64,000 nucleotides of DNA, taken from the IMG/VR virus record IMGVR_UViG_3300029288_000139, positions 1 through 64,000 of that record. One strand, given 5' to 3'. Below are positions 5,021-61,711 of the stretch, in pieces; position 1 is the stretch's first letter; the number at the start of each line of letters is the position of its first letter. Both the position numbers and the translations under genes were made by a program. The notes below the pieces were generated by a model. That model was not told where the DNA came from and ran no database searches. It saw only the letters and a list, made by a program, of their open reading frames with translations. The DNA comes from a virus. Lineage: Duplodnaviria; Caudoviricetes.

Positions 5021-6204
5021 TTTATCTCTTCTCCTTCTTTGATAAATTTATCTTCTGGAGATCCTTTTCCAACCATTAAAGTTTTAGTATAAACCTTATC
5101 ATGCCAAACAACATTTTTAGCCTTTTTATAAACTGTATTTATGAAATTGAAGTCTCCTGTTTGTATCTCAGAAAAATGGTTTATGTTTTCTTTCCATAAA
5201 GACTGTTTAACCACTACATTCGCTGTATCAATATGGTTGACAAGCAAATTGGGTTTCTTCCACGTTTCTGGTAGAGGGTGTATCATACCTCCAAGATTTG
5301 ATCTTATAAAAATCAAATCTGGATTTTTCTCTTTTATAATTACTTTCATATCTCCAATAAACATATTATCTATTAGAATATTATCATCATCCAGCATAAA
5401 CACATACTTTCCTTTTATCTTATCTTTGTTGGCAAAGAATAAACCATTTGCTTTTAGTGATCCAATTCCTATCTCATCTTTTATTATAATATGTTCATAA
5501 TTTTTTACCAGTTGAGAGTCTACACTTTCACAACATTTTTTAAACATTCTTGGTCTTTTTACATAATGTCTGGTAACAATTGAAAATAAAGGTTCTACAT
5601 AAGAAGAAGGTGTCCATAAATAAGGAGGAGGAACTCTATCACTCTCTTTATGGTTGGCATTATGAGCTCTGACTTCTAAATGAAGATGATTTACAATTAT
5701 ACTTTTAGAAGGATTCGTTACATTGTACCCCAGAGTTTTCAACTCATGTGCAACTCTGTTGTCACATCCTAAATAACCCAAACCAAAATCATACTCTAAT
5801 TTTTTAATCTTTCCTTTGAATGCCCAAGCATCTTGACTGTCGGGATGATCCCAATGAAATTTTCCTATTCTATCTTTCTTTACTTCCCACCTTGATAATA
5901 CATAACAATCATCCTCATCTAGATATTCCATATATTTAATTGTATCATCAAAATAAACATCGGAGTTAGTAACAACACTGATATCTCCATTAAGTTTATT
6001 AGCCTCTTCAAAAAATACATTATAAGTAGGTCTTCGAGAAACTCGAACTCCTATTATTTTTTCATGGATTGGAAATTCGGTATTATCTTCACAGATAAGG
6101 ACTATTTTATCTATAAAAGGATTTTTTAAATTTTTCTGTAAGCATTCCATATTTTCATCATTTCTATAAGAAGAATACCAACCTGTTAATAAATTTATTT
6201 TCAT
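5017..6204 (-). CDS. two-domain glycosyltransferase (C-terminal GT2-like)
   Basis: VTNSDVYFD in the N-domain; SIVTRHY...YVFMLDDDN...GDFNF in the C-domain. Confidence 0.75.
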   Translation of the reverse strand: MKINLLTGWYSSYRNDENMECLQKNLKNPFIDKIVLICEDNTEFPIHEKIIGVRVSRRPTYNVFFEEANKLNGDISVVTNSDVYFDDTIKYMEYLDEDDCYVLSRWEVKKDRIGKFHWDHPDSQDAWAFKGKIKKLEYDFGLGYLGCDNRVAHELKTLGYNVTNPSKSIIVNHLHLEVRAHNANHKESDRVPPPYLWTPSSYVEPLFSIVTRHYVKRPRMFKKCCESVDSQLVKNYEHIIIKDEIGIGSLKANGLFFANKDKIKGKYVFMLDDDNILIDNMFIGDMKVIIKEKNPDLIFIRSNLGGMIHPLPETWKKPNLLVNHIDTANVVVKQSLWKENINHFSEIQTGDFNFINTVYKKAKNVVWHDKVYTKTLMVGKGSPEDKFIKEGEEIK

Positions 6205-6297
6205 ATCTTTTCCTTTTTAGAGGTGGGTGGCACTTTCTTTTCATAAGGAGGTAGCCTTTACCCTTAATCCAAGAAAGTTTCCACCACCCACCCGAAG

Positions 6298-6432
6298 CTA
6301 TTCTTTTCTTTTTAAAAAATTTCTATTTCCACAATCTTCTAAAACAACTAATTGTTTCTTGTCAAAAACTTCATTAACAATTTTTGTTTTATCTGGTCTA
6401 TTATATAAAATTAATAGTACAGGAGTTTTCAT
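6298..6432 (-). pseudogene. 44-aa remnant resembling a GT-A nucleotide-diphospho-sugar transferase
   Basis: MKTPVLLILYNRPDKTK...LVVLEDC read by hand; start overlaps the upstream stop. Confidence 0.5.
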
Positions 6433-7118
6433 ATTACTTCTCCAATTAAAGTCATATCTTCCTCAAAACAGCCATTACAAGAAGATATTATTTTTATCCC
6501 TAATTCACTAAATAAGTGTCTAATGGATTCTTCTGTAAAGATATATTGATGTGCAATACTTATAAAACTTTTGGTTTTGTTTCCTCCTCTATAAACTGGT
6601 ATCTGAATCATAATATATTTTCCCAACAATTTCATTTTGTTCAGAGCAAGAACAGGATCTATTAAATGTTCTATCACATCAAATCCGCACACCAAATCAA
6701 ATTCTCGTTTTATATCTACATCGGGGAAAGTCCCGCATAAAATATCAAGACCAAATTCTTTTCTTGCAAAATCACAAGTCCCTTCTGATATTTCAATACC
6801 CAAACATTCTTCCACCCCATTACTTTTACAATAATGTAAAAAACCACCATGACCACAACCTATTTCCAACACAGACCTTATTTCTAGATTTTTAATTCTC
6901 TCCCACCAAAAAGGAATTCTATTAAAGAAATCTAGTTTTGCTCTTTTTTCTATATTGGGGTGTCCATTTACTTCTTCTTGTCTTTCATACCAAAACTTTT
7001 TAAAATCATAAAAGTCTTGGGGAGTATTATTTCTAGATACAAACGTTCCACAAGAAGAACATCTAAAATACTCATTATGAAAACATCTATATAATTTCCC
7101 ATTGCACCAACAGTTCAT
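6429..7118 (-). CDS. class I SAM-dependent methyltransferase with N-terminal Cys cluster
   Basis: VLEIGCGHGGFL, FDVIEHLIDP; CxC...CxxC at the N-terminus. Confidence 0.85.
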   Translation of the reverse strand: MNCWCNGKLYRCFHNEYFRCSSCGTFVSRNNTPQDFYDFKKFWYERQEEVNGHPNIEKRAKLDFFNRIPFWWERIKNLEIRSVLEIGCGHGGFLHYCKSNGVEECLGIEISEGTCDFARKEFGLDILCGTFPDVDIKREFDLVCGFDVIEHLIDPVLALNKMKLLGKYIMIQIPVYRGGNKTKSFISIAHQYIFTEESIRHLFSELGIKIISSCNGCFEEDMTLIGEVI

Positions 7119-49718: not shown

Positions 49719-50071
49719 GAATTCTATCTATATTTTCCTTATTTTCCTTGAAAAAAATAAATACCTTCTATGTATATAAACGGTTTTCTTGGATGTGAAA
49801 AATTTTTTATTTTATGTATCTTTTTTCTTTTAAAAAAATGATATGTAAGTTTATAAAATCATTAATTAATCAAGTAAAAAATTCATTCGTGTTTCTCTGT
49901 CTTCATCATTAGTTCATGATCCTTCTCATTCACCATTGTTTTATTGATCTTTTGTCAAATATTTTGAGAAAATCTTATTAAATTGAATATCTTTTTAAAA
50001 CTTTTTTAAAACTATCTTGGTTTACTTAATAATATTAGATAGATTAATTTTTAAAAATATTTAAAAAAAGC

Positions 50072-50099
50072 TTGACTTTTTAAAAAAAGTATATATAAT
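50072..50099 (+). promoter_or_regulatory. sigma70-type early promoter
   Basis: TTGACT (50072-50077), 16-bp spacer, TATAAT (50094-50099), AT-rich upstream region. Confidence 0.75.
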
Positions 50100-50105
50100 A
50101 TGATC

Positions 50106-50520
50106 ATAGGAGGAGATAACACTTAGACAGAAACGAGAGCTTAAATACCTGAAACCGAGCTCAATTTAAAAACTCAATATCCAAACTAGAGAGCAGAAGC
50201 AAAGCCTTCATCATTTACACCAAGCGAGCTCACGAAATGGAAATGCCTTAGAGCTGAGCTAAAAGAAAATCAACTCGAACTTATCGAAAGGAAGCAAGAG
50301 GACATCACAAGCATCCATCTGAGGGACTTTCGATACGGATTGCGAACTTGAAAAAGCGAGTGATGATAACGCATGAACCATCAAGCGATTCTATGAAACG
50401 CATGACCATAGAGCGGCCAATAAAAAAGATTCATCTAATTAATACTTTTAGAAAGAGAGATTATCAACTATAAACAACTTTCGACCTCCTCTCCAATCTC
50501 TCTTCCAATAAATTACTAAT
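50106..50520 (+). ncRNA. candidate structured leader or ncRNA
   Basis: no long ORF; higher GC than the upstream flank; twin hairpins sharing loop AACGCATGA; 3' inverted repeat GAGAGATT/AATCTCTC. Confidence 0.4.
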
Positions 50521-50540
50521 TATAAAAGGAGACTATAAAA

Positions 50541-52019
50541 ATGAAAGAACAATTTAAAGCCGCCAGGAGAGCTGCCGTACCTATTATAGCTATAGAAACG
50601 TCAGACCAACAATCAACTATCAGAAACATTTCCAGATGCAACGATAACATCCCCGTCATTCAATGGGATATTATTTCTGGACTCTCTGCACTAAACCAAC
50701 TTGGAGTTGACTTAGTTAACAAAATTTGCGAAAAAGACGACCCAGCAATATCTACTGGAAACCCCGCAGAAATGTTATCTAAGATTAAAAACGTTCCCCA
50801 AAAAACAATTATCTTTATGAACAACGCACACAGATTTATATCAAACGAAAGCGTCTCTCAAGGAATTTGCAATCTCAGAGACATTTATAAATCATCTGGA
50901 TCCTCTTTGGTTCTCGTAGCCCCAGCAATTCAACTTCCTTCAGAATTAGAACAGGATATTATGATTATCACAGACAAACTTCCCAATAACGAAGAATTAA
51001 AGAAAATCATTCTCAGCATATGCGAAGATGCTGGAATAGAAACACCAGACGAAACAACAACAAATAAGATAACAGATACTTTAATTGGATTATCTTCTTT
51101 TTGTGCTGAGCAAACCTTAGCAACATGCGTCAAAAAAATAGATAATAAAATCACTATTGATCAGAAAATGCTATGGGATCGGAAATGCAAAGCCGTAGAA
51201 CAAACACCCGGACTTAGCATTTGGAAAGGAGGAGAAACTTTTGATGACATTGGAGGATGCGATAATATCAAAAACTTTACAAACGCCATCATCAAAGGAA
51301 AAGACAATCCTAGAGCCATAGTATTTATGGATGAAATTGAAAAAGCCTTTGCCGGATCATCTAATGACTCAAGCGGAGTTAGCCAAGACCAACTTGGATC
51401 GATTTTATCGTTTATGCAGGATAAAGAAGTTGATGGAATGATTTTTATAGGACCTCCCGGAGCTGCTAAATCAGCTATAGCAAAAGCCACTGGAAACGTT
51501 GGAAATATACCAACCATATCATTTGACTTAGGAGCGATGAAAAATAGTTTGGTTGGAAAATCAGGAGAACAAACACGAAAAGCCCTTCAAGTTATTGAAG
51601 CTATTTCAAAAGGAAGAGTTTTATTCATTGCTACCTGCAACAATATAACCACTTTACCTCCAGAACTTCGTAGACGATTCACGATGGGAACCTTCTTTTT
51701 CGATCTTCCAACAGAAAATGAAAGAAAAATGATTTGGGAAATTTACAAACAGAAATATCAAATTTCAGACCAAGATTTACCTGATGACGAAGGATGGACT
51801 GGAGCGGAAATTAGACAATGCTCCAAATTATCTTCCAAACTAAATATCACACTAAAAGATGCTTCTAATTACATCGTACCCGTTGCTAAATCAGCCACAG
51901 ACCAAATTGAATCTTTGAGAAGATTGGCATCTGGAAAATTTATCAATGCCAATGAAAAAGGAATTTATCAAATGAAGATTAATAAAACACAGACTGAAAC
52001 TAGACGTCAATTTTCATAG
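50541..52019 (+). CDS. Ycf46-like AAA+ ATPase with permuted Walker B / Walker A order
   Basis: FDDIGG; IVFMDEIEKAF (51318-) precedes GPPGAAKS (51450-); FIATCNN, LPPELRR, FFFDLP. Confidence 0.85.
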   Translation: MKEQFKAARRAAVPIIAIETSDQQSTIRNISRCNDNIPVIQWDIISGLSALNQLGVDLVNKICEKDDPAISTGNPAEMLSKIKNVPQKTIIFMNNAHRFISNESVSQGICNLRDIYKSSGSSLVLVAPAIQLPSELEQDIMIITDKLPNNEELKKIILSICEDAGIETPDETTTNKITDTLIGLSSFCAEQTLATCVKKIDNKITIDQKMLWDRKCKAVEQTPGLSIWKGGETFDDIGGCDNIKNFTNAIIKGKDNPRAIVFMDEIEKAFAGSSNDSSGVSQDQLGSILSFMQDKEVDGMIFIGPPGAAKSAIAKATGNVGNIPTISFDLGAMKNSLVGKSGEQTRKALQVIEAISKGRVLFIATCNNITTLPPELRRRFTMGTFFFDLPTENERKMIWEIYKQKYQISDQDLPDDEGWTGAEIRQCSKLSSKLNITLKDASNYIVPVAKSATDQIESLRRLASGKFINANEKGIYQMKINKTQTETRRQFS

Positions 52020-52030
52020 GAGGAAAAATT

Positions 52031-52336
52031 ATGCCTTGCTACACAATAACAACCGTAACATTGGAATTTAAAAATGCCAACATGGAATTACTGAAAAAAG
52101 CCATCAAAGCTTCTCTTGGAATAGACGCAGAGATTTACAATCTCGGAGTCAAATGGAATGGAGGATATTATAACAAAATAATGGGAGAAATAACATTAAA
52201 CAAAAAAACTGCGGAGGATGACATCAAACTCATCAAAAGAGCTTACAGTGCGGAAATTGTAAAAGACCAAGCGAAAAGATTTGGATGGAACCTAAAACAA
52301 ACTTCAGAATTCAAATATGAAATTTCAAAGAGGTGA
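52031..52336 (+). CDS. DUF1257/Ycf35-like protein
   Basis: T....EFKN..LL.KA, Y..E.V...A...GW; follows a Ycf46-like ATPase. Confidence 0.55.
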   Translation: MPCYTITTVTLEFKNANMELLKKAIKASLGIDAEIYNLGVKWNGGYYNKIMGEITLNKKTAEDDIKLIKRAYSAEIVKDQAKRFGWNLKQTSEFKYEISKR

Positions 52337-52536
52337 TAATTATGGACAAAATGGAAATTGAAATTTTGGAAGATGGAACAATTAAAACCAGCACAGACAA
52401 AATATCAATGCCTAACCACGGAGGAGCAGAGATGCTAATCAAAGAAATGGTTAAATCAGCTGGAGGCACAGAGACGAGAATTAGGAAAGCCAATCATACT
52501 CTTCATGAGCATAATGGACATTTCCACACACATTAA
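52333..52536 (+). CDS. DUF2997-like protein
   Basis: MEIEILEDGTIK; C-terminal HxHxH. Confidence 0.55.
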   Translation: MIIMDKMEIEILEDGTIKTSTDKISMPNHGGAEMLIKEMVKSAGGTETRIRKANHTLHEHNGHFHTH

Positions 52537-52569
52537 CTAATTAACCCTATAACAAAAAGGAGAAAAAAG

Positions 52570-53238
52570 ATGAACATAGAAATTAAAAACAGATTTACAA
52601 ACAAGATTATTTTGTGTGGAGAATACGAATCAATTAAGGATTGCTTGGAAAAAAATAGAGGAACAAACCTCGAAGGCGCAGACCTCAGAGGAACAAACCT
52701 CGAAGGCGCATATCTCAGAGGCGCATATCTCGAAGGCGCATACCTCGAAGGCGCATATCTCAGAGGCGCATATCTCGAAGGCGCATATCTCGAAGGCGCA
52801 TATCTCAGAGGCGCATATCTCAGAGGCGCATATCTCAGAGGCGCATATCTCGAAGGCGCATATCTCGAAGGCGCATATCTCGAAGGCGCAAATCTCAGAG
52901 GCGCATATCTCGAAGGCGCATATCTCGGAGGCGCATATCTCGAAGGCGAAAATCTCAGAGGCGCATATCTCGAAGGCGCAAAAAACATAACATTTCCAAT
53001 TTTAAATATTCAAGGCACGCAACATCATCTGTTTTATATGTCCGGCAAAATCTCTATTGGTTGTGAAAATCACACCATTGATAAGTGGATTAAGGATTAC
53101 AAAACCATCGGAGAAGAACATGGATATACGGATGAACAAATCAAGGAATATTTTGGTTACATTAAAATCTGTAAAAAGTTAGCAGAGGACAACAAGAAAG
53201 AGAAAAAAGATGGACTTTTAAACAAAAAAGGAGAATGA
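52570..53238 (+). CDS. pentapeptide-repeat protein
   Basis: 21 GAYL(E/R)-type units. Confidence 0.9.
   Translation: MNIEIKNRFTNKIILCGEYESIKDCLEKNRGTNLEGADLRGTNLEGAYLRGAYLEGAYLEGAYLRGAYLEGAYLEGAYLRGAYLRGAYLRGAYLEGAYLEGAYLEGANLRGAYLEGAYLGGAYLEGENLRGAYLEGAKNITFPILNIQGTQHHLFYMSGKISIGCENHTIDKWIKDYKTIGEEHGYTDEQIKEYFGYIKICKKLAEDNKKEKKDGLLNKKGE
52660..52974 (+). repeat. 21 x 15-bp tandem repeat
   Basis: GGCGCATATCTC(GAA/AGA) units. Confidence 0.95.
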
Positions 53239-54131
53239 AAATGAAAAAGGAAATTAAAAACACTTTGAGAGTAACAAACGCCGCAATGCTGATTTTCACC
53301 ACCCACGCATGGGGAAACAGAAAGAAAGTCGATACCAAAAATATTGAAGCAAAAGCGGAAAAGAGCTTTTTATCCGTAAGTAAAAAATTGATCGATTCGC
53401 AGGAATACAAAGACATTCTCAACTATCAAACAGAGGTTTATGATTGGATCAACAGAAACTCTGTCCCTTCTTTCTATCTCAGAGGCTCTTATCTTTTCAG
53501 CATGAATTTTGTCGACGAAGTTGAGGAATATATCAAATCGGCACAGGAAACACTGAAAAAGATGATTGAACCTTTAATATTAGAATATCAAAAGAAAATG
53601 GACGATGCTCAAGAAAGACTTGGAGATTTATGGAATCCAAACGATTATCCCAGCATTCAAAAACTGGAAGGTTCTTTCAGCTTCGAGAAAAGATGGGTAA
53701 AATTCGATATCCCGGAAGAATTACCTTCTGCTATTTTTAAAGAAGAACAAATTAAAGCTGAAAATATGTGGAAAGAATCAGCAGAACAAATAAGCCTCTG
53801 TCTTCGTCAAGCCTTTGTCGAATTAATCAAACACGCCAATGAAGTTCTTCAGCCAGATGCCAACGGAAAGACTAAAGGATTCAAAAATTCTTCTTTCGAT
53901 AAAATTGACGAATTTATTGCCACATTCAAAAACAGAAATATCGTCAACGACAAAGACCTTGAAGAATTAGTACAAAAAGCCAATAACATTTTAAAGACCG
54001 TTGACGACCCGCAAGAACTCAAGAAGGATGCCGAAATGAGAAACATCGTTAGCAACAACTTCAAGGAAATTACTGATAAATTAAATACGATGATTGAAAC
54101 CAAACCATCAAGAAAATTTGACCTTGAATAA
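53235..54131 (+). CDS. DUF3150-like protein
   Basis: WG.RK, SKKLID, Y....N..DYP, F..F..RNI..D..LE.LV. Confidence 0.6.
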   Translation: MKMKKEIKNTLRVTNAAMLIFTTHAWGNRKKVDTKNIEAKAEKSFLSVSKKLIDSQEYKDILNYQTEVYDWINRNSVPSFYLRGSYLFSMNFVDEVEEYIKSAQETLKKMIEPLILEYQKKMDDAQERLGDLWNPNDYPSIQKLEGSFSFEKRWVKFDIPEELPSAIFKEEQIKAENMWKESAEQISLCLRQAFVELIKHANEVLQPDANGKTKGFKNSSFDKIDEFIATFKNRNIVNDKDLEELVQKANNILKTVDDPQELKKDAEMRNIVSNNFKEITDKLNTMIETKPSRKFDLE

Positions 54132-59698: not shown

Positions 59699-61711
59699 AT
59701 GGATTATTCTCGTGTAGAAATATCAAACGATATAGAAAAACGTATTCTAACTGGCATGATTGTTCACACCCAATATCTACGAGATATTAGTACAATTATA
59801 CAGACAAAATTTTTTAAAATAGATTATATAAAGAAAATTGCAGGATGGGTTTTAGCATATTACAAACAGTACAAAGAAGCCCCTGGCAAAAATTTTGAAT
59901 CAATATTTTATTCCAAAACAGAAAAATTAAAATCAGCAGAAATTGAAATAATGGAGAATTTTCTTCAAGAAATTTCTGACCAATACATACTAGACAATCA
60001 AGATTCTTTCCCTTTTAATAAAGAATTATTATATGACCATACAGTAGAATTTTGCCGAGATAGGCAACTTGAAATACTTCAAAAAACAATAGAAGGACAT
60101 AGATTAAACAAAGATTTTTCCAAAGCTGAAGGTTTAGTAGCTGATTTTGGAAAAATATCACAACAAGTTAGCCAGTGGATAAACCCACTAGATTTTTTAG
60201 AAGTTGAAAAAACATTTGAAGATGAGGAGGAAAACAAACTTTTTAAATTGCCAGGAGCCTTAGGTGATCTTATCGGTTATATGCAAAGAGGGTGGTTAGT
60301 TGGCTTGATGGGACCGACAAAGAGGGGGAAATGCATATCAGGAGATTCAAAGGTTCTTCTGTCTAATGGCAAAGAAATTGAAATTCGTGAACTAGTAAAT
60401 AAAAAAATAAAAGAAAAAGTAGTTTCTTTTAATGAAAAAACTCAAAGATTTGAGTCTATTGAAATTTCTGAGTTTTTTAACAACGGAATAAAACCTTGTT
60501 GGACTATAACAACTAGAACAGGGAGAAAGATTTCGGCTACTATAAATCACAAATTTCTAACCCCCCTTGGTTGGAAAAAAATGAAAGAGATTTCTATAGG
60601 AGAACATATAGCTGTTAATAAGAAACAAAATAATAAGAAACAAAATCTCACAAGACAAAGATTCGAATGCGCTAAAGAAACCAAAGCTACTTATGAGAAA
60701 TATATAAACTCAGAAATTATGTGGGATAAAGTTAAAACAATAACATATGCAGGAGAAATTGATACTTACGATATTTCTATTCCCAAACTTCATAATTTTG
60801 TCACAGACAATTGTTTAGTACATAATAGTTTCTACGAAATGGAAATAGGATTTCATGCACTATGTGCAAAACTAAAGATTGCTATATTCTCTTTTGAAAT
60901 GAATAAAACAGTTTATAAAAAAAGAATCTATAAAAGAATGACGGCAATGGCTGAAAAAGGAGGCGAATATAAATACCCTGTATTTGATTGTCAATCCAAT
61001 CAAGATGGCTCTTGTCAGAAGGTTGAAAGAACAAATAGATCTTCTTTGATAGGGAGAGACGAAAAGGTAATGGATTACTCACCTACTTTGGGTTATAAAC
61101 CATGTGTTGCCTGTCGTGGAAAGAAAGATTTCTATCCTACGTCATGGTGGAGAACTCAGAACCAAAAAGAAGATTTATCCCCTTCTAATATTTCAAAGAA
61201 AATAAAAACATTTAAAAAATTATTTGGAGACAATTTACGAATTCGATGTTTCCCAGCTTTTACGGCAGGATTTGACGAAGCAATAGCAGAACTAGACAAT
61301 TTAAAATATCAGGGATTTGAACCAGATGTAATTCTGTTTGATTACTTTGATATTATGTCTTCCGAAGTTATGAATGAACTAGAAGACGAAAACCGTAAGT
61401 GGAAAAAAGGAAAAGGTTTAGCAGGAGAAAGGCATTGTTTAGTTATAAACTGTCATCAAGGAAATCGGGAATCTGAGGAAAGACAAAGTATAAAACAAAA
61501 ACACACTGGAGGAAGTATAAAGAAATTACAACACCTTGACCTTGATTTAACTTTAAATCAAACAGAAGAGGAAAAGAAACAAGGAAGAATGAGAATTCAA
61601 ATTTTAGTCAATCGGCATGAAGAAGGAATAGAAAAAGGGGAGGTAATTGTTTTACAACAATTAAAACTTGGACAACCATTTATTGATAGTGAATGGAGAA
61701 GAGAAAAATAA
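59699..61711 (+). CDS. DnaB-like replicative helicase with intein
   Basis: GPTKRGK[intein]S, FSFEM, ILFDYFD, HQGNRE. Confidence 0.85.
   Translation: MDYSRVEISNDIEKRILTGMIVHTQYLRDISTIIQTKFFKIDYIKKIAGWVLAYYKQYKEAPGKNFESIFYSKTEKLKSAEIEIMENFLQEISDQYILDNQDSFPFNKELLYDHTVEFCRDRQLEILQKTIEGHRLNKDFSKAEGLVADFGKISQQVSQWINPLDFLEVEKTFEDEEENKLFKLPGALGDLIGYMQRGWLVGLMGPTKRGKCISGDSKVLLSNGKEIEIRELVNKKIKEKVVSFNEKTQRFESIEISEFFNNGIKPCWTITTRTGRKISATINHKFLTPLGWKKMKEISIGEHIAVNKKQNNKKQNLTRQRFECAKETKATYEKYINSEIMWDKVKTITYAGEIDTYDISIPKLHNFVTDNCLVHNSFYEMEIGFHALCAKLKIAIFSFEMNKTVYKKRIYKRMTAMAEKGGEYKYPVFDCQSNQDGSCQKVERTNRSSLIGRDEKVMDYSPTLGYKPCVACRGKKDFYPTSWWRTQNQKEDLSPSNISKKIKTFKKLFGDNLRIRCFPAFTAGFDEAIAELDNLKYQGFEPDVILFDYFDIMSSEVMNELEDENRKWKKGKGLAGERHCLVINCHQGNRESEERQSIKQKHTGGSIKKLQHLDLDLTLNQTEEEKKQGRMRIQILVNRHEEGIEKGEVIVLQQLKLGQPFIDSEWRREK
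60332..60826 (+). mobile_element. 165-aa mini-intein in the Walker A motif
   Basis: starts CISGDS, block B TINHKF, ends YDI...HNF...VHN followed by Ser. Confidence 0.95.

Follow-up and report, generated by a model that had tools for sequence, protein, structure and literature searches.

To investigate the order of the catalytic motifs in a putative AAA ATPase of a phage, we analysed a stretch of 64,000 nucleotides (the window), which is part of an 83.5-kb uncultured virus record (IMGVR_UViG_3300029288_000139). The gene of interest is one open frame at 50541-52019 (+) encoding 492 aa, with a strong AAGGAG ribosome site 8 nt upstream, and the protein has a 100% match in its own virus record. 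The small and large terminase genes lie on the minus strand just upstream (49718-47923), while a helicase, a primase, a replication initiator and an intein-bearing DnaB-like helicase lie downstream on the plus strand. The ATPase gene is the first gene of this plus-strand block. The features of the locus are as follows.

50072..50099 (+): promoter-like site TTGACT-16-TATAAT upstream of the operon
50541..52019 (+): gene for the 492-aa permuted Ycf46-like AAA ATPase
50541..51215 (+): N-terminal domain (aa 1-225), degenerate and AAA-like, without a P-loop or DE motif
51240..51305 (+): alpha0 region (FDDIGG..., aa 234-255), here leading into the Walker B strand instead of strand 1
51306..51431 (+): relocated block B (aa 256-297) with the Walker B strand, a loop and helix alpha3 ending FMQDK
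51318..51335 (+): Walker B motif IVFMDE (aa 260-265)
51432..51611 (+): block A (aa 298-357) with strand 1, P-loop, alpha1, strand 2, the pore-loop region SLVGKSGE and alpha2
51450..51473 (+): Walker A motif GPPGAAKS (aa 304-311)
51615..51641 (+): sensor-1 strand VLFIATCN (aa 359-367), joined directly to alpha2; ATCN is aa 364-367
51669..51677 (+): arginine trio R377-R379 (second region of homology, presumed trans-acting fingers)
51714..51974 (+): C-terminal helical lid (aa 392-478) with the GWTGAEI motif
52031..52336 (+): downstream 101-aa gene, weakly DUF1257 (Ycf35)-like
52333..52536 (+): 67-aa gene in the position where relatives carry DUF2997, homology not shown
53235..54131 (+): 298-aa DUF3150-like partner gene

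The promoter-like site matches the consensus at 11 of 12 positions, but as the number of such sites in the region is not above the shuffled expectation it is only a lead. The match of the 101-aa gene to Pfam DUF1257 (E=0.01, 16.5 bits) is below the cutoff of 22.2. For the 101-aa and 67-aa genes, searches of Pfam, NCBIfam, PHROGs and PADLOC gave at best this sub-threshold DUF1257 hit, and homologues in the loci L034, L059 and L075 of our set also have no Pfam hit. The 67-aa protein has no Pfam hit and gave no BLASTP alignment to the DUF2997 protein of phage Tunturi_3; its homologues and DUF2997 homologues occur in different viral loci and never fall on the same ORF. Clear DUF1257 genes follow the ATPase in Tunturi_3, in Aeromonas phage HJ05, in Rhizobium phage vB_RleS_L338C (L338C) and in a further locus, L020. 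A homologue of the DUF3150-like gene lies downstream on the same strand in 59 of 83 genome and phage loci and in 49-51 of 57 viral loci, and the L020 homologue reaches the Pfam DUF3150 cutoff. In acidobacterial prophage-like loci the set sits with Gp157, an Rce1-like protease, a radical-SAM/4Fe-4S protein, SSB and a helicase.

Order of the motifs and its conservation

The original prediction described an AAA+ ATPase in which Walker B is placed before Walker A in one open frame, and this observation is confirmed. Along the chain the order is the FDDIGG helix (alpha0), the Walker B strand, a helix ending SFMQDK, Walker A, the SLVGKSGE helix, sensor 1 and the RRR arginines, so that Walker B lies 44 residues before Walker A. 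The motif coordinates of the prediction are correct; only the given start of the region, 51241, is one base into codon 234.

The order reflects non-collinear homology and not chance. A phmmer search against PDB aligns residues 252-305 of the protein to the Walker B region of VAT D2 (374-429) and residues 298-348 to the Walker A region of the same domain (321-371), and block A also aligns to the Walker A region of p97. Pfam AAA (PF00004) matches with E=2.7e-15 but in 3 stretches, thus not collinearly. The closest PHROG, phrog_8638, matches with E=6e-43 in 4 stretches, as it does for gp103 of Tunturi_3, whereas HJ05 gp65 (462 bits) and L338C gp050 (745 bits) match it in 1 full-length stretch. 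These two phage proteins have the normal order, namely the DIGG helix, a long linker, GPPGTGKS, the VG(S/Q)SE helix, Walker B, GDSGV...L(T)FMQE and then (T/S)AN.

To test the block swap in silico we exchanged aa 256-297 and aa 298-357 back. This raised the BLOSUM62 local score by +102 against HJ05 and +122 against L338C, and by +123, +73 and +79 against three chromosomal Ycf46-type proteins from Bryobacterales genomes. In contrast, 300 random swaps of the same sizes lowered the score on average and reached the same gain only if they hit the same borders. After re-ordering, block B is 37% and block A 42% identical between the two families, both higher than the flanking parts. The blocks are therefore the protein's own Walker A and Walker B modules in exchanged order. 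The consensus comparison further shows roughly 9-12 linker residues fewer between alpha0 and the core than in the normal-order forms.

The permuted order is neither an assembly error nor rare. The exact protein is seen on four contigs. A word-indexed search gave 2335 hits, of which the best 120, at 48-82% identity, each cover at least 81% of the query in one alignment. An exhaustive search of representatives gave 6215 hits at E<=0.001 and 1245 50%-identity clusters at E<=1e-30, and the 150 best, the only ones inspected, all match collinearly. Of 269 relatives collected, 244 read B-then-A by motif and none reads A-then-B, the rest being regex misses or intein-containing forms, while 118 of the 120 best HJ05 relatives read A-then-B. 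A tree on re-ordered sequences, without an outgroup, gives two clean clades. The permuted form occurs on 57 IMG/VR contigs and on 95 contigs of GTDB species genomes; these are mostly from Bryobacteraceae and Terriglobia, with bins labelled Planctomycetota, Nitrospirota, Dormibacterota and others. Bryobacterales genomes hold 1-4 full copies each, beside normal-order Ycf46-type paralogues. The same order is found in the complete genome of a cultured phage, the Tunturiibacter phage Tunturi_3, as gp103, which is annotated as ‘ATPase’.

The residues expected of a working AAA site are retained. In an alignment of 144 sequences at about 40-50% identity (mean column identity 30%) the invariant columns are G183, E265, L289, G307, K310, N367 and R379, and D264, D329, R377, R378 and the lid motif W419-T420-G421 are at least 90% conserved. 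The Walker A and Walker B motifs, the sensor-1 polar residue and the second-region-of-homology arginines of classical-clade AAA proteins are thus all present, and it is the collinear order of the motifs that deviates. This is the pattern expected of a working site, not of a relic.

Predicted fold of the permuted domain

The fold appears to be unchanged by the rearrangement. AlphaFold2 with this alignment gives a pLDDT of 95.8 (pTM 0.89) for the whole protein and of 95.1 for aa 227-492. In the model alpha0 forms a helix at 241-252, and the core contains exactly five strands (259-263, 298-303, 325-328, 360-366 and 384-386) followed by a four-helix lid. In a Foldseek search the full-length model aligns over both domains to D1-D2 of Rix7, NVL and p97 (TMq up to 0.53). 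The N-terminal 225 residues, with a beta-alpha-beta plus helical-lid secondary structure, are therefore regarded as a degenerate AAA-like domain, with ETSD where the P-loop would be and NN where DE would be; this domain is shared with the normal-order relatives and aligns with HJ05 and L338C.

The model of the AAA domain was compared with solved structures by VIA-align. It matches spastin (Z 16.3, 191 residues aligned, rmsd 2.4 A), NVL D2 (Z 16.1, 203 of 249 residues) and also Vps4, VAT and FtsH, and the alignments run to residue 240-249 of the domain model. About 45-55 residues remain unaligned by this sequential aligner, which is roughly the size of the moved block.

The topology was examined from sequences alone by mean-field direct-coupling analysis (DCA) on 333 permuted sequences (Meff 198). 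The strongest coupling in the whole domain is residue 259 (start of the Walker B strand) with residue 356 (end of alpha2), which are 97 residues apart here but adjacent in a normal AAA chain. Among the ten possible strand pairs the four best are b1-b5, b1-b4, bWB-b4 and bWB-b2, at ranks 22, 49, 54 and 66 of 30381, and all six others rank 165 or worse. This spells the sheet order 5-1-4-WB-2, in agreement with the published AAA+ order beta5-1-4-3-2 (PMC5039278), and the chance that a pre-specified four of ten pairs come out on top is 1 in 210. One must keep in mind that this evidence is indirect. The position of the Walker B strand next to the P-loop rests on DCA and on the count of aligned residues, not on model coordinates, and as AlphaFold uses the same alignment signal the two lines of evidence are not fully independent. 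Helix alpha3 also couples to alpha2, the sensor-1 strand and the pore-loop region, and 14 of the top 40 couplings tie the moved block to the rest of the core.

Interpretation and rival explanations

We regard this, with high confidence, as a natural, non-circular permutation of a classical AAA ATPase domain carried by a phage Ycf46-like protein. The unit of roughly 42 residues made of the Walker B strand and the following helix has moved from its normal place after helix alpha2 to a place between helix alpha0 and strand 1. The chain then runs alpha0, beta3(WB), alpha3, beta1(WA), alpha1, beta2, alpha2, beta4(sensor 1), alpha4, beta5, lid, while in space the sheet would keep the canonical order 5-1-4-3-2, and Lys310, Asp264/Glu265, Asn367 and the Arg377-379 fingers would form an ordinary AAA active site. 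The original prediction had interpreted the order as a swap of two internal blocks between fixed flanks, with retained catalytic residues and a fold that can be rebuilt with new connectivity, and our results support this interpretation in all three points. What the analysis itself demonstrates is the rearrangement, its conservation and the retention of the catalytic residues, together with coevolution and model evidence for the unchanged fold; that the protein hydrolyses ATP as an active ring (hexamer) with arginine fingers acting in trans, how it arose and what it does in the phage are inferences.

In the new connectivity all crossovers would move in the same direction across the sheet as the originals, with strand 3 to strand 1 instead of strand 3 to strand 4, and strand 2 to strand 4 instead of strand 2 to strand 3, so that by our inference the helices can stay on their usual face. 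The simplest origin is a single event, an internal tandem duplication of the A-B segment in a normal-order Ycf46-like ancestor followed by loss of the first A and the last B, the route accepted for circular permutations applied to an internal segment. As the tree has two clades and no outgroup, a single origin and its direction rest on parsimony. A motif search of 389 sequences for B-A-B or A-B-A-B intermediates flagged three, all of them regex artefacts in an intein, in strand 2 or in the N-domain.

The biological role is proposed from gene context only and with low confidence. DUF1257 and DUF2997 genes follow the ATPase in the normal-order phages HJ05 and L338C as well as in the permuted Tunturi_3, and we read the protein as an early-expressed remodelling ATPase, equivalent to the normal-order phage proteins, that may act with DUF1257-, DUF2997- and DUF3150-type partners near the replication genes. 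An unfoldase activity is uncertain, as the pore-loop position has Leu-Val-Gly rather than an aromatic residue. Membership in the IetA/IteA anti-phage ATPases was rejected on score, with 28.7 bits against a cutoff of 510 for the NCBIfam IteA model and 32 bits over aa 349-442 only for PADLOC IetA.

The window stems from an uncultured virus, so that a wrong joining of the two blocks in a metagenomic contig had to be considered. Such a misassembly, which had been named beforehand as a condition that would refute the finding, is excluded for all practical purposes, since hundreds of homologues from independent assemblies (JGI, ENA, NCBI, Logan) share the same order and junctions, as do the genome of the cultured phage and acidobacterial chromosomes with 1-4 copies each. 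It is also unlikely that the upstream DE motif is not the working Walker B and that block 256-297 is a separate subdomain or a relic, in a pseudo-ATPase or in an enzyme using other acidic residues such as D329 at the end of strand 2. The conservation of D329 could hint at this, and activity is inferred from sequence and models alone, without enzymology. However, D329 is also present in normal-order relatives, which have their own Walker B, and no acidic pair follows the strand after alpha2. E265 is invariant and D264 nearly so together with K310, N367 and R379, block B is homologous to the Walker B block of normal-order relatives including the family-specific SGV...LG..L.FMQ(D/E)K signature, and DCA places its strand between the sensor-1 strand and strand 2 and packs its helix on alpha2. 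A complex prediction with three copies of the AAA module scored 0.35 against a mark of 0.42, with controls at 0.00-0.02, and is not used as evidence either way.

A further possibility, which we consider rather unlikely, is that the order is real but already described, as the family is large and easy to find. Literature searches on permuted AAA+ proteins, Walker B before Walker A in AAA or P-loop ATPases, Ycf46 in phages, DUF1257/DUF2997 and non-circular permutation found nothing on this family, although most subscription journals were outside their scope and absence is not proof. Pfam, NCBIfam, PHROGs and PADLOC have no model that matches the protein end to end, no PDB chain matches better than E=7e-07, and source annotations read only ‘hypothetical protein’, ‘AAA family ATPase’ or ‘ATPase’. 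We think it more likely than not that this is the first recognised natural case in which the core of an AAA/ASCE P-loop ATPase has been rewired so that Walker B precedes Walker A, in an ancient lineage of over a thousand sequence clusters in phages and prophages of several bacterial phyla that would remain a working ATPase. This would show that the strand-3/helix-3 unit is a movable module of the fold, and might provide a natural template for rewired or split AAA motors and a test case for folding-order and permutation-by-duplication models.

Walker A before Walker B is treated as a fixed feature of AAA+ and related ATPases, and profile models and annotation pipelines assume it. A large, conserved lineage with the opposite order shows that the fold tolerates a non-circular change of connectivity without losing its catalytic residues, and explains why these proteins match Pfam and PHROG models only in pieces and receive vague names. 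As matched normal-order and permuted proteins occur with the same partner genes, and the permuted form is carried by a cultured phage, folding, ring assembly and mechanochemical coupling can be compared directly. The ATPase/DUF1257/DUF2997/DUF3150 module is itself uncharacterised, although widespread in phages, prophages, cyanobacteria and plastids.

Comparison with known systems

The closest systems are the normal-order Ycf46-type AAA ATPases of phages and bacteria (phrog_8638; HJ05 gp65, L338C gp050 and chromosomal Ycf46-like proteins of Bryobacterales), from which the permuted protein, in our view, descends and like which it would work. They share a length of about 500-555 aa, the degenerate AAA-like N-terminal domain, the DIGG helix, the SGV...LG..L.FMQ(D/E)K signature, sensor-1 (A/T)T(A/C)N, LPPEL and a lid with the GAEI(E/R) core, the full GWTGAEI form occurring in two of the chromosomal proteins (L086 and L087). 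They have DUF1257 and DUF2997 neighbours, which in the window correspond to a sub-threshold DUF1257 match and no detected DUF2997. They differ in having Walker A before Walker B and a longer alpha0-to-strand-1 linker, and identity is only about 24% after re-ordering.

Classical-clade AAA proteins with solved structures (spastin, Vps4, NVL/Rix7 D2, Pex1/6, VAT/p97, FtsH) have the same fold by structure search (Z 14-16, rmsd 2.4-3.2 A, 180-203 residues aligned, 19-25% identity, lid included), and the two-domain D1-D2 layout is matched by the full model. All solved relatives have the strands in the order 1, 2, 3, 4, 5 along the chain, whereas here strand 3 comes first, and the pore loop has Leu instead of an aromatic residue.

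The circularly permuted GTPases (YjeQ/RsgA, YlqF/RbgA, YqeH) are likewise P-loop NTPases with conserved nucleotide-binding motifs in a changed order along the chain and a preserved 3D site. Those are circular permutations (G4-G5-G1-G2-G3) of a GTPase domain in which Walker A still precedes Walker B (G3), while here an internal segment swap in an ASCE/AAA ATPase puts Walker B first and both termini of the domain stay in place. A non-circular permutation is found in the HK97 capsid fold of Bordetella phage BPP-1 (PMC3863775), also a phage protein in which a conserved fold is kept with a changed chain topology, but this is a structural protein and not an enzyme, so that no catalytic motif order is involved.

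Inteins at the catalytic motifs and in the replicative helicase

Several homologues of 650-900 aa carry inteins that are inserted exactly in the P-loop or at the sensor-1 motif. In the homologues P0125 and P0215 the insertion follows IAT of the ATCN motif, in P0136 and P0198 it follows GPPG, and in P0174 it follows GK. The normal-order homologue P0274 is interrupted after GPPG. Both the permuted and the normal-order families are hit. At the sensor-1 site, the conserved Cys of ATCN serves as the +1 residue. We further report an intein in the window itself, interrupting the DnaB-like replicative helicase at 59699-61711 (+). Here the Pfam model Intein_splicing matches aa 220-376 at E=5e-26, and the DnaB_C match comes after it.

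The N-terminal domain and the surroundings of the ATPase gene

The following features of the window were regarded in the context of the ATPase gene and its neighbors:

49719-50540, an 820-bp divergent intergenic region between the terminase small-subunit gene and the ATPase operon
50072-50099, a TTGACT-16-TATAAT site within this region
50541-51215, the N-terminal domain of the ATPase (aa 1-225)
52570-53238 (+), a gene for a pentapeptide-repeat protein
52533-52988 (-) and 52616-52990 (+), open frames overlapping this gene

The N-terminal domain is, in its predicted structure, itself an AAA-like alpha/beta domain plus lid that has lost both Walker motifs. The protein is thus a two-tier (D1-D2-like) AAA with an inactive first tier, as in the normal-order relatives. 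The promoter-like TTGACT-16-TATAAT site lies about 440 nt upstream of the start codon, which would leave a long 5' leader.

The pentapeptide-repeat protein (Pfam E=1e-33) sits between the 67-aa gene and the DUF3150-like gene. It is absent from nearly all related loci, as it was found in 1 of 57 viral loci and in 0 of 83 genome loci. The long overlapping ORFs in other frames are by-products of the repeat.

Related loci in bacterial genomes

One Bryobacterales genome (G003) holds fragmentary copies of the permuted gene (G003:C5:5574-7036 and 2434847-2436297). The two matches at 5574-7036 carry in-frame stops (1 and 6), while the pair at 2434847-2436297 is split into two stop-free pieces. The same genome has a normal-order 546-aa paralogue on another contig (locus L085, 2078-3718).

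In Bryobacteraceae and Solibacter contigs (loci L020 3511-9714, L006 1750-9074 and L035 10149-10559) the permuted ATPase lies in a conserved block, which consists of an SNF2/DEAD-like helicase or Gp157, an Rce1-like CAAX protease, the ATPase, DUF1257, a radical-SAM/4Fe-4S protein, DUF3150 and SSB. A hint towards a redox or Fe-S connection of the module, which on present evidence remains no more than a possibility, arises from the comparison with cyanobacteria, as these link DUF2997 and DUF1257 (ycf35) to the ferredoxin fed7 (PMC4284462).
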